From sequence record PP359570: a stretch of DNA of 64,000 bases. One strand, given 5' to 3'. The stretch is from Escherichia phage ALITA. The notes under the pieces are model-generated. The model worked only from the letters and a program-made list of their open reading frames with translations. It had not been told where the DNA came from and made no database searches. Shown one piece after another: positions 18,597 to 41,881 of this stretch. The translations under genes and the position numbers were made by a program. Every line of letters starts with the position of its first letter. The first letter of the stretch is position 1.

Positions 18597-18776
18597 TTAT
18601 TTTTGTAGATCATTTCTTCTTTCCTTTTTGATTACAGCCCCATCACTCCCTTGCCAAACTTCCGATCTGAATTCCATCTCAAACCACTCACCACCGCAAA
18701 AACGGCTATGTTCAACACGTCTATCTTCCTTCATTGCTTCTTTAGCTTCGATAGAAGTTAGTTCGATGTTTTGCAT
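18597..18776 (-). CDS. hypothetical small protein
   Basis: Start at MQNIEL with AAAGGAG RBS (the longer track ORF has an implausible N-terminus). Confidence 0.4.
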   Translation of the reverse strand: MQNIELTSIEAKEAMKEDRRVEHSRFCGGEWFEMEFRSEVWQGSDGAVIKKERRNDLQK

Positions 18777-35689: not shown

Positions 35690-35960
35690 ATAAGTTATCT
35701 AACTAAATTAAAACTAATTATCTCACTTTTATTTATAACTTACTGTTACTATCTCATTGATAACCTTATATTAAACAACAATAACTAATATAAATCATTA
35801 CTAAGCTAAATATAATCTATCTAACCCTTAAAACTACAATTATAATCTATCTAATTGTTGCACAAAGTAACTATTAAATTGTTAGTAACATTACTAAATA
35901 ATTCACATCCTATCTATTTATGATCTAATCTTTACCTTTCTATCTATTACCTAAATAACC
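35690..35960. repeat. G-depleted tract with reiterated ATCTA / TATCTA motifs
   Basis: About 270 bp with only ~5% G on the plus strand and 10 or more ATCTA-type repeats; non-coding. Confidence 0.5.
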
Positions 35961-36517
35961 ATTTCATACAGTAATTATTCCATATGGTAATCATTTCATA
36001 CAATAATTATAACAAGAAATATAATTCGCAAGCGTATCATTAGCAGCCTATGCCGGACACATAGGCGGCTAATAATAACGCAACTACACACCCCACATAA
36101 TAACCATCAACGATGGTTATTATTTGTGTTTATGTAGCTTGCAACAATTGCAAGCGCAACAATATACATGGTATATTGTATTCCCTTACATTGTTGCGGT
36201 GCGTTATTATTAGCTAATGTTTAGAACATTGGCTATAATATAAGCTGCATATAATAAACTATGCAATAATAAACATGGTGAATAATGACACCGATGATCA
36301 TAATGCGCCACCCTCCAGGGGGCGCTATGTAAACACAAAGAAATCTTTCTTGTCAAGAAAATATTGCCACTATTGCGCAAAATTATTTTTATCTGAATAG
36401 ATGATTTTTCATACTATTGCCCCTATAACATACCTCATTTGTTGAGCCTACTTTCTTAAAAGCGCAATAAATCAGAATTATCTTGATTTTTAGGGCGTTT
36501 TATAGTACAGAAAGTAT

Positions 36518-36536
36518 GCAAATGATAATCATTATC
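36518..36536. promoter_or_regulatory. near-consensus Fur-box-like 19-mer
   Basis: GCAAATGATAATCATTATC matches the consensus GATAATGATAATCATTATC at 17 of 19 positions (16 consecutive). Confidence 0.5.
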
Positions 36537-36702
36537 AGCTATCTTCCACGGGTAGCACTATTTCACGCCAGATCATTTCATTTGGCAAGGTGTATATAGA
36601 TGTTTAGACTTGCCAAGCCATTGATTTACTTAGAATTTATCTGTTTTGTTGTGAGTAATACCTTTCTTACTCAGAAAATAATCAAAAGTCTTATAAGTCA
36701 TT

Positions 36703-36738
36703 GAATGATAATACAAATGATAATTATTCTCATTGATA
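36703..36738. promoter_or_regulatory. tandem degenerate Fur-box-like sites
   Basis: GAATGATAATACAAATGATAATTATTCTCATTGATA. Confidence 0.35.
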
Positions 36739-37093
36739 TTTGAGGGGGACGGTCGGCAGAAATCGGGGGGCGCTGAAAATCGCGTTAAGCACCTCTCGCA
36801 AGCGAGCAGTATTTTGCGGCAAGTTATTGATATTATTGACTTTACGCTTATGAAAAGGGGGTGTGTCGAAATAAATCGGGTATACCGGAAAATTTTTGTG
36901 GCATAGATATTTATTTGTCTATATTATGTACAAAGGGGTGTATTAAAAATAATAGGTATATATAGAATAATTGATAGGGAAATCCTATACTAATCCCTCC
37001 ATTAATGATGTTTCTATGTTGCTGTTATTGTAATAGATGAAAAGACGCTGTATGATGTGTGGCATGAAACGTAAACTTATAAAGGAGTCTGAT

Positions 37094-37463
37094 ATGTGTG
37101 TCCCTCTTAGCAGTCCACTGCTGTTAGAATTTTACAAAGCATGGATGGAAGATCATTCCTCAATGCATCGTGAGAATGTTGGTTTGTGTATTTGCCTTAT
37201 GGATTATCTGGCAACCACTATGTCAAAGAAAAAAAAAACCTACGCAAGAAGATATAGAACATTTCAAGATGGTTCGTAGTAAAACGCTGGAAGAGATGAA
37301 ATTGCAATTCACGTGTGCTGGGCTATCCTCCTTCCTGCCCTTTAATGATGACCTTCTGTGTTATGAAGATGAAGGTAAGAAACATTCTTGCCATACTAAC
37401 CCAGAGAGATTGCAGTGGGTGAAAGATCGTATCGAAGATGCAAATAATGTTTGCATTGGATAG
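37094..37463 (+). pseudogene. frameshifted member of a three-gene paralog family (frameshift at an A10 run, about 37229-37238)
   Basis: Track ORFs 37037..37279 and 37170..37463 are N- and C-terminal halves of one protein alignable to the 39245 and 40237 products; frames join if the A-run were A9. Confidence 0.6.
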
Positions 37464-37533
37464 AAATGCCTGTACACTGTGTTCCATAAGATATGCAATA
37501 TCGCGCATAACAAACTACTAATGAGAGGTGTAA

Positions 37534-37851
37534 ATGAGAACTTTATCTTTGTATATTGATCGTAACTCCATTCGAGAAATGCGAGATGTACAACAGGATT
37601 ATGAATTCTACCCGGAAATTTGTGAACGCTATGAAACTATTCTTAATTCTGTAGAAGACCCAGATACCAGTGAAACAGGTGCTTCCCACTTACTGTGGAT
37701 GTTGAATGAAATTCAGGATGGGTGTAATGATATGTCTGAAACCAAACGCCATCGTTGGCTAGGCTATATTCAGGGTGTTATGGTTATGAAAAACCTTATT
37801 ACAGTTGATGATGAACGTAACGCTACACGCCCCATCTTTAATGGAGCATAA
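37534..37851 (+). CDS. hypothetical protein
   Basis: 105-aa ORF. Confidence 0.5.
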   Translation: MRTLSLYIDRNSIREMRDVQQDYEFYPEICERYETILNSVEDPDTSETGASHLLWMLNEIQDGCNDMSETKRHRWLGYIQGVMVMKNLITVDDERNATRPIFNGA

Positions 37852-37852
37852 C

Positions 37853-38068
37853 ATGAAAAGCATTCAGGTGTGTATTGAAAATAATTGTGGTTATCTGGGG
37901 TTGACACATGTTGCTTTCCCTCTTATGTTAGATGCCGATATCGCTTACAGCGGAGTTGCTTATGTGTCATTCAAGACAATGAGCCAAGTACCTGGCTGGA
38001 AGTGGGAAGTAGTTGATGTTGTTGAAGGAGAAGATTATGTTTTCCTTCCACACGAATATATTGTTTAA
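37853..38068 (+). CDS. hypothetical protein
   Basis: Start at MKSIQV adjacent to upstream stop. Confidence 0.45.
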   Translation: MKSIQVCIENNCGYLGLTHVAFPLMLDADIAYSGVAYVSFKTMSQVPGWKWEVVDVVEGEDYVFLPHEYIV

Positions 38069-38082
38069 AAGAGGAAAAGAAG

Positions 38083-38259
38083 ATGGATAAAGAGACTACT
38101 GTGTACTTAGTAACAAAGAATACCCCAGGCTGGAGCCAATGCAGCACTGTACCTTACAAAATCTGTGCAACATTAGAACTAGCACAACGTGCAGAAGCAG
38201 AAGTGAATGCCATGCAATACAGCTATGGTGAAATCATTCCTTTTACTCTTGAACAATAA
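38083..38259 (+). CDS. hypothetical small protein (58 aa)
   Basis: Unlisted ORF MDKETTVYLV... with AAGAGGAAAAGAAG RBS. Confidence 0.4.
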   Translation: MDKETTVYLVTKNTPGWSQCSTVPYKICATLELAQRAEAEVNAMQYSYGEIIPFTLEQ

Positions 38260-38270
38260 GGAGTTGTGTA

Positions 38271-38723
38271 ATGTTTGAAATTGGTAAAGTGTATCGTTTT
38301 AAAAACCCATCTTATATCCGTAAGTTTGCTAACGTGTCTGAGTGCAATAGCAGGATTGCTTCTTTTTTAGGTGATTCCTATTTTCGTGTATTAGATGTGG
38401 ATGATTGGTATGGTGTCACTGCTTTGCAATCCTTAGCAGGAGAACAAGAAATTATCGCTCAAAATGAAGGAGACTTTCTTCAGTGTTACACGTTGCTTGC
38501 AAAAAGTGAGTTTGAATATTTTGTAGAAGTCTTAGAGGAAGCACCAAAAAGTAAACACGAAGAGAAATACCTGCTTGTAGTGGATGGAGTTCCGATCATG
38601 GAAACCATCTCCCGTGAGGAAGTTGAAAAAGAGGCGAAACGTTACAAGCTGGATCGTACACAGAGTGTAGTTGAAATCTATTCTCTTGTTGGTGTTGCAG
38701 ATATTAGTGTGAACATCGTATAA
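38271..38723 (+). CDS. hypothetical protein
   Basis: 150-aa ORF. Confidence 0.5.
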   Translation: MFEIGKVYRFKNPSYIRKFANVSECNSRIASFLGDSYFRVLDVDDWYGVTALQSLAGEQEIIAQNEGDFLQCYTLLAKSEFEYFVEVLEEAPKSKHEEKYLLVVDGVPIMETISREEVEKEAKRYKLDRTQSVVEIYSLVGVADISVNIV

Positions 38724-38726
38724 TAT

Positions 38727-38939
38727 ATGTGTAATGGCAGATACATTCTTCGTGTATCTGATAAGTCTCCTATGTTTGACTGGCGGGGCTGGTGGCTACT
38801 AGCTCCGATGCAAGGTCTGACAGACGTGGAAAAGGAGGCTTATGTGTATACAAAAGAAGAGATAGAAGATAGTCTTTATTTGACAGATAACATTAAGAAT
38901 GGTATCTTTGAGTGTAAATTGAAAGGAGAGGAAGAATGA
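38727..38939 (+). CDS. hypothetical protein
   Basis: 70-aa ORF. Confidence 0.45.
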   Translation: MCNGRYILRVSDKSPMFDWRGWWLLAPMQGLTDVEKEAYVYTKEEIEDSLYLTDNIKNGIFECKLKGEEE

Positions 38940-39235
38940 CTATTACAGAAAAACTGCGCTGTATTGCGAAGCAAAGTGGAGAAGGTTTATGGTTTCCTAT
39001 TGAGGAAATTATTCAGGACTGTTATGATCAGGCTAAGACTGGCAAATACTCCAAAGCATTTAAACCATCTGTTTTCGGTTTGGATGACTATCCAAAAAAT
39101 GAGCAAGCAAAGAAACGACAAGTTGATTTGATTGATCTTGCTATGGAAGCACTACGAGAGCATGGGCTTAGTAAGGTGTATGCTTTAAACACCAAAGAGG
39201 GTTTTGTAGATTCAGTGATCGTAGACTGGTATTAA
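38936..39235 (+). CDS. hypothetical protein
   Basis: 99-aa ORF, ATGA overlap. Confidence 0.5.
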   Translation: MTITEKLRCIAKQSGEGLWFPIEEIIQDCYDQAKTGKYSKAFKPSVFGLDDYPKNEQAKKRQVDLIDLAMEALREHGLSKVYALNTKEGFVDSVIVDWY

Positions 39236-39244
39236 GGAGAAGCC

Positions 39245-39613
39245 ATGCAAGAGAATAGTAAAGTGTGTAACATGAAAAGCAGCCCCTATTTGCTACAATT
39301 TTATGAGTGGTGGTTAGAACAAGAAGATACAAACTTTAGCAAAAAGCATTATGGTCTTTGCACGTGTCTTGTAGACTTCTTATACAATATTGCTTTGATA
39401 AAAGATGTTGAGAATGTAGCAAAGCTCCAATCCTCTGTACGAGAGGAAATGAAGGAACAATTTAAGAAAGCGGGTTTGAACCATTTACATCCGTTTAATA
39501 CGGATTTCTCGCACTACTTTACGGAAACAGAACTAGGCATTGCACACCTTAATAAAGAACGTGTACAATGGGTGATTGATCGTATTCGTGATATGGAGGA
39601 ATACAATGGTTAA
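39245..39613 (+). CDS. hypothetical protein, paralog family 1
   Basis: SSPYLLQFYEWW...GLCTCLVDFL...NKERVQWVIDRIRD aligns with the 37094 and 40237 products. Confidence 0.55.
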   Translation: MQENSKVCNMKSSPYLLQFYEWWLEQEDTNFSKKHYGLCTCLVDFLYNIALIKDVENVAKLQSSVREEMKEQFKKAGLNHLHPFNTDFSHYFTETELGIAHLNKERVQWVIDRIRDMEEYNG

Positions 39614-39824
39614 GTTTAAAACTTTCTGTGCAATCACTGTTTGTCTTATTCTTGCATACGTGTTATTCTCTAGTATCATTCGTTTAGGTGAGTATATGGC
39701 AAGAGAAGCTCGTGAAAGTGAAGCTAAAAAAGAACAGTGCATCGTGTTAAAGCACCAAAGGGATGCTGAAAAGTTTCTCGCACTTGATTGCAATCGTTAT
39801 GTATCTTATCAAATGTATGAGTAA
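39606..39824 (+). CDS. small membrane-anchored protein, paralog family 2
   Basis: Start at MVKFK (GGAGG RBS); KEQCIVLKHQRDAEKFL similar to KEKCIILKHKKQAEDFL of the 43078 product. Confidence 0.5.
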   Translation: MVKFKTFCAITVCLILAYVLFSSIIRLGEYMAREARESEAKKEQCIVLKHQRDAEKFLALDCNRYVSYQMYE

Positions 39825-39833
39825 GGAGGGTTT

Positions 39834-40058
39834 ATGGTAAAACGTCTGGAATGGGATGCGTGTACTGCTCACGCTTGTCACTGTGATATTGTTGAAGATC
39901 CTAATGGAGAGATGGTGTATTATGAGGATTACGAAGCATTGCACAATGCTGTGATTGCTTTACTGGATGATATTGGCTCACGCTATCCAGGACAACAATT
40001 CACGTGTCCACATATCCAACTATTAGCCGAACTTACGGAGTATCCAAGTGTTCCATAA
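39834..40058 (+). CDS. hypothetical Cys-rich protein, paralog family 3
   Basis: CDIVEDPNGEMVYYEDYEAL similar to CDIVPDPEGDYVLLADYNKL of the 43954 product. Confidence 0.5.
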   Translation: MVKRLEWDACTAHACHCDIVEDPNGEMVYYEDYEALHNAVIALLDDIGSRYPGQQFTCPHIQLLAELTEYPSVP

Positions 40059-40059
40059 T

Positions 40060-40227
40060 ATGGGTGTCCCTGAACAACTGCTCTTTATTGTAGGATTAGT
40101 AGGCTTATTGGCGGCTGGCGCTAAAGCCGCTTCTCACACGCATCACATAATGTTAAGATTTCTATTCCTGCTCCCTTCTATCCTCGTACTACTAGTCATA
40201 CTGATCGATAACATTTTTCACAATTAA
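40060..40227 (+). CDS. hypothetical membrane protein (55 aa)
   Basis: Unlisted ORF with two hydrophobic helices. Confidence 0.3.
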   Translation: MGVPEQLLFIVGLVGLLAAGAKAASHTHHIMLRFLFLLPSILVLLVILIDNIFHN

Positions 40228-40236
40228 GGAGAGGTC

Positions 40237-40821
40237 ATGAGTAAAATTATACCAAGCAGTTATGAATTATTGCAGTTTTATGTATATTATATAGACTGGG
40301 TTAATAGATCGAATGTTAAAGACAATGCGATGTTTAGTAAAAACATCTGTTTAACAGAAAGTATCTTCCGTTACTGGCACACAGGTAGAAAGTGTACACA
40401 CAGTGAAGCTATGCGCATTGTAGGTGAATACCTGGAGCAATTGCAAAAAGCAGAGCTACCTGTCCTTCACCCATTCAATGAATCTAAAGAAGAATTAGAA
40501 CAAGAGTGTAGAGAAGGTAAGTGCCATTTGAATGAAAAACGTATCGAATGGGTGAGGCAACGTTTAGCCGATGCAGGAAAGACTCCTAGTGACTCTGACT
40601 ATACGTGGTATGATGTAGAGGGTTTAGTTCAAGGTTTTGAGGCTTGTGCTATAGATAATACAAACTTTGCCAAAGTTTTATGCGAGGCTTATGACCTGGC
40701 AGATAAAATCCGAAATCACGGATGGAAACAAGAGCATAAAGAATCATATGAACGCCTTGACAAGATTTTCAAACAGATCTATTCTAACCACAAGAAGATG
40801 TTCCAAATGGAGGATGTGTAA
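40237..40821 (+). CDS. hypothetical protein, paralog family 1 (longest member)
   Basis: N-terminal 120 aa alignable to the 39245 product; extra C-terminal domain. Confidence 0.55.
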   Translation: MSKIIPSSYELLQFYVYYIDWVNRSNVKDNAMFSKNICLTESIFRYWHTGRKCTHSEAMRIVGEYLEQLQKAELPVLHPFNESKEELEQECREGKCHLNEKRIEWVRQRLADAGKTPSDSDYTWYDVEGLVQGFEACAIDNTNFAKVLCEAYDLADKIRNHGWKQEHKESYERLDKIFKQIYSNHKKMFQMEDV

Positions 40822-40893
40822 TGAAAGAGATTATTTTGAAGGGCATCGTTACGAAGTTCCAGAATACTGTCTTTGGATAAAACGGGAGGAATA

Positions 40894-41061
40894 ATGCAAA
40901 CATTTTTTATCGACAAGTTCAATAAAAGTATGAACACGTGGATGGCAACATTCACTATGCAATTTGCGTCATTTAAAGAAGCTCAAGAATGGTGCGATCA
41001 ACACAAGGATTTTGATTTTTACTATCAAGTTAATGCAAACCTTTCTCCAGAGGAGAAATAA
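40894..41061 (+). CDS. hypothetical small protein
   Basis: Start at MQTFFI with GGGAGG RBS. Confidence 0.45.
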   Translation: MQTFFIDKFNKSMNTWMATFTMQFASFKEAQEWCDQHKDFDFYYQVNANLSPEEK

Positions 41062-41062
41062 T

Positions 41063-41407
41063 ATGTTGGCTGATATTGAAATCCTTATGTACCGACAAGG
41101 TATGATCAAAATGTGGCTAGATTCTTTTAGCAACATATACTGTACAGTACGATCAGCAGACGAGCGTAAAACGCTTATTTTATCTGCTATTGTTGATAAA
41201 CAACGTTTCTTCAAAGAAATTTTGCAAACAGGCTTCTCCGATGCAGGAGTAGAGATTGCAACGCTTAGTCTTGGAGTGCTGTCTTACTTGGAATCCGTTG
41301 TTTTATATGTCTTCTCTTTAGAGGAAGACTTGCAATTTGAAGCATTAAAACTTATCCTAGATGCTGCAATTGACATAGAACAAAATCGAATTGATTCTTT
41401 TGAATAA
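41063..41407 (+). CDS. hypothetical protein
   Basis: Start at MLADIE with GAGGAG RBS. Confidence 0.45.
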   Translation: MLADIEILMYRQGMIKMWLDSFSNIYCTVRSADERKTLILSAIVDKQRFFKEILQTGFSDAGVEIATLSLGVLSYLESVVLYVFSLEEDLQFEALKLILDAAIDIEQNRIDSFE

Positions 41408-41422
41408 AATAAGGAGAAAACT

Positions 41423-41881
41423 ATGAAAGAGGTTAAACATTATCCACATGGTCGTAGTTTTGTAGCTGTATGGCATGTTCCTGCTCGTAATGAACTATTT
41501 TGTGCATCTTTTCATTACAAAGATGGACAATATTTCACCTATGACGAAACGATGGATGATTTTATCCCAGAGTGCGATCATGGGTATACACCAATGTTCT
41601 TTAAACGTATGAAAGCTCGTTTCTTCGTTACAGATGTTGATGGTGAACCTACTTGGCACATCGAAGAAGATTGGCAAGATTCTGTGGATATTAAAGAAGC
41701 CCCAGAATGGGCTACACTACTGGTACACGTCAAAACCCCTACTCTTGACGTTATGGCGTGGGTTAATCATGATGATACCCATTACCAATACATAAATGGT
41801 AGCACAGAGATTTCTGGTGAGATTATTGGTCGTTGGAAGCCTACGAATCAGGTTGCTATTGTCGGGTATAAGACAGTATAA
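41423..41881 (+). CDS. hypothetical protein
   Basis: 152-aa ORF with AAGGAG RBS. Confidence 0.5.
   Translation: MKEVKHYPHGRSFVAVWHVPARNELFCASFHYKDGQYFTYDETMDDFIPECDHGYTPMFFKRMKARFFVTDVDGEPTWHIEEDWQDSVDIKEAPEWATLLVHVKTPTLDVMAWVNHDDTHYQYINGSTEISGEIIGRWKPTNQVAIVGYKTV

Follow-up and report, generated by a model that had tools for sequence, protein, structure and literature searches.

A ten-adenine run interrupts an early phrog_2510-family gene of Escherichia phage ALITA, probably through a recent, lineage-specific frameshift

The genome of Escherichia phage ALITA, a phi92-like Justusliebigvirus of 147,398 bp, raises a small question of gene integrity: is one of its early genes broken, miscalled or deliberately split? 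Within the 64,000-nt stretch analysed here (the window; record PP359570), two overlapping open reading frames (ORFs; 37037..37279 and 37170..37463) meet at a run of adenines. A preliminary description interpreted them as halves of one paralog-family gene, and offered as explanations a homopolymer sequencing error, a recent inactivating mutation or expression that depends on transcriptional slippage. As argued below, the split is probably a real, non-programmed frameshift in a dispensable early accessory gene, caused by a recent expansion of the run from A6 to A10 that is specific to this lineage. A search for literature on phage ALITA found nothing relevant.

The whole interrupted gene occupies 37094..37463 on the plus strand. 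Its true start is the ATG at 37094, which lies 6 nt downstream of a Shine–Dalgarno sequence read directly from the DNA (AAGGAG, 37082..37087, plus strand) and is equivalent to the start annotated in the orthologues; the ORF beginning at 37037 is merely the maximal one. A recount of the sequence agrees exactly with the run length and ORF coordinates first reported: there are ten A's at 37229..37238 (plus strand), flanked by G37228 and C37239, in the context ...ATGTCAAAG AAAAAAAAAA CCTACG... or, more widely, ...CAACCACTATGTCAAAG-AAAAAAAAAA-CCTACGCAAGAAG.... The run lies within a lysine tract (AAG AAA AAA AAA A) and is the site of the frame change. Specifically, the 5′ fragment, read in the initiation frame (37094..37279, plus strand), encodes 48 authentic residues followed by 13 out-of-frame residues before a TAG at 37277-37279 (product MCVPL...MSKKKKTYARRYRTFQDGS). 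The 3′ part of the gene (37239..37463, plus strand) encodes the remainder of the protein, PTQEDIEHF...NNVCIG, in the +1 frame (PTQEDIEHF...DRIEDANNVCIG), with its stop at 37461-37463. The two ORFs are thus one gene whose frame changes inside the A10 run, and, as had been proposed, one A fewer repairs it, although the length then given, 123 aa, is that obtained with A12; in silico, A9 yields an uninterrupted protein of 122 aa, so that frame is restored by the loss of one A or the gain of two. With A11, the equivalent of the −1 frame, translation gives KKKKNLRKKI* and stops after 6 codons. At the junction, the rescued product would read ...TTMSKKKKPTQEDIEHFK, as against ...SKKKKTYAR in the truncated product.

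In GenBank, each half has its own hypothetical-protein entry in phage ALITA, WWP17808.1 (61 aa) and WWP17809.1 (64 aa), the latter from an internal ATG at 37269 that has no ribosome-binding site. The stop of the 5′ fragment follows 8 nt after this ATG and, though a ribosome-binding site is absent, termination-reinitiation there might in principle make a C-terminal piece. For annotation, the two entries are halves of one phrog_2510-family gene, and merit a frameshift flag or a re-check of the reads.

The paralogy noted in the preliminary description is borne out by the repaired protein, which aligns end-to-end with the products of genes further along the same strand. The closer of these, an intact 122-aa paralogue at 39245..39613 (plus strand), is 41% identical over the whole length (E=6e-27). 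The more distant one, also intact, is a 194-aa protein with a C-terminal extension (40237..40821, plus strand; 29% identity, E=1e-8), in which the homology corresponds to the N-terminal domain. All three match the phrog_2510 profile: the repaired protein at E=1.1e-22 over residues 7-119, and the paralogues at 1e-25 and 1.6e-17, respectively, the second of them matching phrog_27059 as well. These families (phrog_2510 and the related phrog_27059 and phrog_6418) comprise phage proteins without assigned function. The phrog_2510 domain is a five-helix unit of ~110 aa that defines a large, phage-specific family, with 913 representative clusters at E<=1e-3 in an exhaustive profile search, and 463 copies in 167 phage records, at up to 7 copies per genome, by tblastn. 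In some proteins the domain is tandem-duplicated or fused to other phage domains that likewise lack an assigned function. No relatives of the family were found in Pfam, NCBIfam or PDB, and its structural neighbours in BFVD are all uncharacterised. From position and multiplicity we would guess at a role in early host takeover or counter-defence.

What the frameshift would cost the protein can be judged from a structural model of an intact orthologue, P0001. The AlphaFold2 model, built on a 24-sequence alignment, is confident (pLDDT 89.6, pTM 0.81), has five helices and places the lysine tract in the loop that joins helices 41-53 and 60-83; the tract also falls within the most indel-rich block of the family alignment. 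Because of this loop position and indel-rich setting, the protein should accommodate an additional lysine or two. A protein cut off at residue 48, on the other hand, loses three of its five helices along with the majority of the conserved polar positions (E, Q, PFN, H, N, R, W, R, D), and for this reason the 61-aa truncated product is probably inactive.

Comparison with related phages, which the preliminary description had proposed as a check, bears most directly on the origin of the split. The nearest relatives of ALITA are phi92-like Justusliebigvirus phages of about 94-98% DNA identity, and we read 19 orthologous loci as DNA, from 18 GenBank phages and one ENA metagenome contig. The tract is A6 in 16 of the 19 and A5G in the other three, in-frame and encoding three lysines, and all 19 loci carry an intact ORF of 119-125 aa. 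A twentieth orthologue, from EmilieFrey, encodes ...SKKKP...; a nearby substitution had hidden its locus from our regular-expression search. Neither a long run nor a frame split occurs in any of the 20 orthologues checked, all of them in-frame and intact, so the orthologues are not disrupted. The options first put forward fare differently under this result: slippage-dependent expression as an evolved, conserved feature finds no support in it, and a mutation or a miscalled A9 both stay in contention.

The ALITA tract is 4 nt longer than that of every relative compared, and no intermediates (A7-A9) were seen among these genomes. Moreover, the four extra A's are the sole private differences of ALITA in the first ~345 nt of the gene when set against the 19 orthologues; every substitution of ALITA there is common to at least one relative, and no further decay (private substitutions, indels or stops) is present in that interval. 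Either the lesion is not real, therefore, or it is very young, the product of a recent event. An old, decaying pseudogene is rejected on the same grounds, as there are no lesions in these ~345 nt beyond the first.

The allele appears equally isolated in broader collections. Two clusters at 90% identity, with 73 and 65 members, contain the orthologues, and the listed members of both are intact, with the exception of the two ALITA fragments and P0003, a 79-aa call on a metagenome scaffold (ENA ERZ16268092 scaffold_90826). We reject P0003 as a second truncated allele: its tract is A6, and the scaffold is chimeric, with a junction just upstream of the tract that accounts for the spurious 'truncated' member. 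Within positions 1-300 of that scaffold, unrelated sequence abuts the phage gene immediately before the CACTATGTCAAAGAAAAAACC motif. An exact look-up of nine repaired variants (A6, A9 or A12, with four alternative starts) found none of them in a collection of 15 billion proteins, which also holds no independent assembly of the ALITA allele, and the 61-aa product is absent from the gene-position index. A DNA pattern of the site that allows the run to vary had no matches in IMG/VR and none in GTDB genomes. It had three in JGI/ENA metagenomes, one of them a true relative with A6; the other two were dismissed as chance matches in a GC-rich methyltransferase-like gene.

The surroundings of the gene point to a locus that is gained, lost and rearranged with ease. 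The orthologue in Salmonella phage UAB_1, gp001, comes first after the left terminal repeat, and thus heads a long rightward cluster of small early genes. The records of phi92, PHB05, VEcB and UAB_1 begin about 456 nt before window position 36900, and UAB_1 has an annotated direct terminal repeat of 343 bp near that record start, from which we place the physical genome end near window position 36444 and regard the ALITA record as permuted with respect to these four. Upstream of the gene (~35400-37090) lie roughly 1.7 kb without a convincing ORF.

The relatives have between 0 and 2 copies at this locus. Phages phi92, PHB05 and VEcB lack the gene, and only the upstream ~105 nt of a 701-nt query match them; two tandem paralogues occur in outra, inny, Paula and others, with an extra small ORF between the two in ESCO8, Eryne and Nernie. 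Blastn against outra, inny, ESCO8 and Nernie shows the lone gene present in ALITA, AV123 and UAB_1 to be a hybrid of these tandem genes. Window positions 36900-37432 (query positions 1-533) match gene 1, and the sequence from 37413 onwards (query positions 514-659 and beyond) matches the 3′ end of gene 2 and its downstream flank. The 20-nt stretch common to both paralogues (37413..37432, plus strand) is the apparent crossover point. Such a hybrid implies unequal crossover or deletion or, conversely, a duplication, and to judge from these arrangements the gene is evidently dispensable and turns over quickly. Loss of such a gene by frameshift would be unremarkable.

Taken with the recent and private character of the change, these observations lead us to favour a true A6 to A10 expansion. 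Slipped-strand mispairing during replication would have lengthened the lysine-codon A-tract, shifting the 3′ two-thirds of the gene out of frame, and the long tract would now be hypermutable, such that the phage stock is probably a mixture of A9, A10 and A11. These phages presumably use the host RNA polymerase for their early genes. The E. coli enzyme, which would slip on runs of about nine or more A/T, may thus produce a minority of A9 or A12 transcripts and some full-length protein whose surface loop is longer by one or two lysines, with the truncated 61-aa peptide remaining the main product. It is plausible that incidental slippage on A10 acts as a leaky rescue in this way, and the full-length product would then probably be present in some, minor, amount. 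Poly(A) frameshifts in endosymbionts are reportedly rescued in part by RNA polymerase slippage, in work from 2008 attributed to Tamas and colleagues. Rescue at A10 may be small because sense-strand poly(A) of eight or fewer bases induces little slippage by the E. coli enzyme, and deletions were not detected on it (PMC6260861).

A possible but doubtful reading is that the deposited assembly gives a wrong run length, the phage in fact having A9 (or A12) and an intact gene with one (or two) extra lysines. The unusual length of the run lends this some weight. The window contains 38 runs of A6, two of A7, none of A8 or A9 and the single A10, along with 38 runs of T6 and two of T7, the maximum for T, so that A10 is the longest homopolymer of the window and the sole one of at least 8 bases; the longest runs are the least accurately called on every sequencing platform. 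Dinucleotide-preserving shuffles lead one to expect a mean of 2.8 A10/T10 runs per window, against the one observed. The sharp stop at 7 bases, set against that expectation, suggests that slippage-prone runs are selected against in this phage genome, an avoidance that is expected for A/T runs where they are prone to slippage (PMC1088944), and it is against this avoidance that A10 stands out. Further in favour of a miscall, the allele is known from a single record with no independent assembly, the gene is free of other decay, and the submitters merely annotated two ORFs.

Two considerations speak against a miscall. First, the change is one of +4 nt, which excludes a one-base miscall of A6; even a miscalled A9 requires a true expansion of at least +3 nt, so that of the sequencing error first suggested, the simple one-base version of the ancestral run falls and the miscalled A9 stands. 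Second, the assembly appears sound elsewhere. An indel census of the ALITA window against phage AV123, over about 46 kb aligned, gave 24 groups of indels that are not multiples of three, most of them intergenic or in terminator stem-loops, two at homology breaks, one near the 3′ end of a gene (position 18625) and one a frameshift of AV123 itself (position 38785), and the A10 is the sole clear mid-gene frame-breaking indel of the window in this aligned sequence. A generally error-prone ALITA assembly is accordingly rejected. On either account, this is a homopolymer frameshift, or possibly a miscall, confined to one genome; it is ordinary, belongs to a known kind and calls for no new mechanism.

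That the run is a functional device, with programmed slippage or ribosomal frameshifting giving a set product ratio or with a phase-variable ON/OFF contingency tract, seems to us improbable, in spite of several features that such a device would share. A run of 10 exceeds the 9A/9T that is the usual threshold for RNA polymerase slippage in bacteria (Baranov et al., 2005; PMC1088944) and lies at the junction of two ORFs that a change in run length (to A9 or A12) joins into a full-length homologue, as at sites of programmed transcriptional slippage; it is also, as in phase-variable loci, a coding mononucleotide repeat whose length toggles the frame. Variable dosage might also plausibly be useful in this family of early genes, which is multi-copy and evolves fast.

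The closest functional parallel is tssM1 of Citrobacter rodentium, where the transcripts of an A11 run contain 10-15 A's and the frame, broken in the same relation as here, is restored at a level of about 20% (PMC4256274). As in tssM1, ALITA has at least nine sense-strand A's exactly at the junction of two ORFs that jointly encode a full-length homologue, frame is restored by −1 or +2 A, nearby RNA structure is unneeded and the polymerase is enterobacterial. However, the tssM1 split is conserved (also in Yersinia) and both of its products are needed (PMC4256274), whereas the ALITA split is confined to one genome record, is known from sequence alone, and is replaced in relatives by an in-frame A6. 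Among the 20 orthologues neither the run nor the split is conserved, which, together with the avoidance of runs longer than 7 elsewhere in the genome, argues against a device of this sort.

Ribosomal recoding fares no better. The A10 run resembles programmed −1 sites, such as dnaX (A AAA AAG) and the phage tail chaperone G/GT, in being an A-rich slippery sequence of lysine codons in a phage gene; unlike dnaX-type sites, it is not conserved, its productive shift is +1 or −2 rather than −1, and neither an upstream internal Shine–Dalgarno-like element nor a downstream hairpin accompanies it. A dnaX-type −1 programmed frameshift is rejected, since the −1 frame ends after six codons and the shift would be unproductive. 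Specifically, the fold of 37180-37330 (151 nt) is no better than that of shuffles (z=+1.05), giving no sign of a stimulatory RNA structure, and the A10 site contains neither a prfB-like in-frame stop nor a hungry codon. Neither an Rfam scan of 34500-41500 nor a tRNA scan of the neighbourhood returned a match, and a promoter/terminator scan did no better than shuffles. The 13-residue out-of-frame tail is not conserved in sequence. A conserved programmed recoding signal is thus not supported.

Slightly less probable still is that the A-tract serves the first early gene near the genome end of this virulent coliphage as a hypermutable switch, either ON/OFF or of dosage, in which replication slippage would generate A9/A10/A11 subpopulations and RNA polymerase slippage would grade expression; if true, the phage would encode a contingency locus that controls a candidate for host takeover or anti-defence.

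The non-programmed expansion that we favour can also be likened to the sporadic homopolymer frameshifts seen in single phage records, with which it shares a change that is not a multiple of three, a small hypothetical early gene and the annotation of two or truncated ORFs. Unlike the usual one-base change in a run of 3-6 nt, the ALITA change is +4 and ends at A10. If the A10 is real, it offers a natural test of rescue by E. coli RNA polymerase slippage during phage infection, and would show whether this widespread, multi-copy early family is dispensable in the laboratory host.

The comparison with AV123 yielded several observations outside the interrupted gene. In ORF 38727-38939, within the same early-gene cluster, ALITA and other relatives have G4 at window position 38785 and AV123 has G3, which truncates the AV123 orthologue (annotated at 43 aa versus 70 aa); this is another single-record homopolymer frameshift, with the ALITA ORF intact. 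At window position 18625, in a small minus-strand gene and 5 codons short of its stop, ALITA has T5 and AV123 has T6, a difference that alters the C-terminal residues in one of the two phages. AV123 also has about 1.2 kb (roughly three small genes) that is missing from the window at about 40835-40863; the junction lies just past the paralogue at 40237-40821, where ORFs 40873-41061 and 40964-41407 overlap. Lastly, four records labelled 'UNVERIFIED Campylobacter phage' (MG065639, MG065656, MG065645 and MG065689) are ~94% identical to this Justusliebigvirus region, and probably either carry the wrong host label or represent contaminants.
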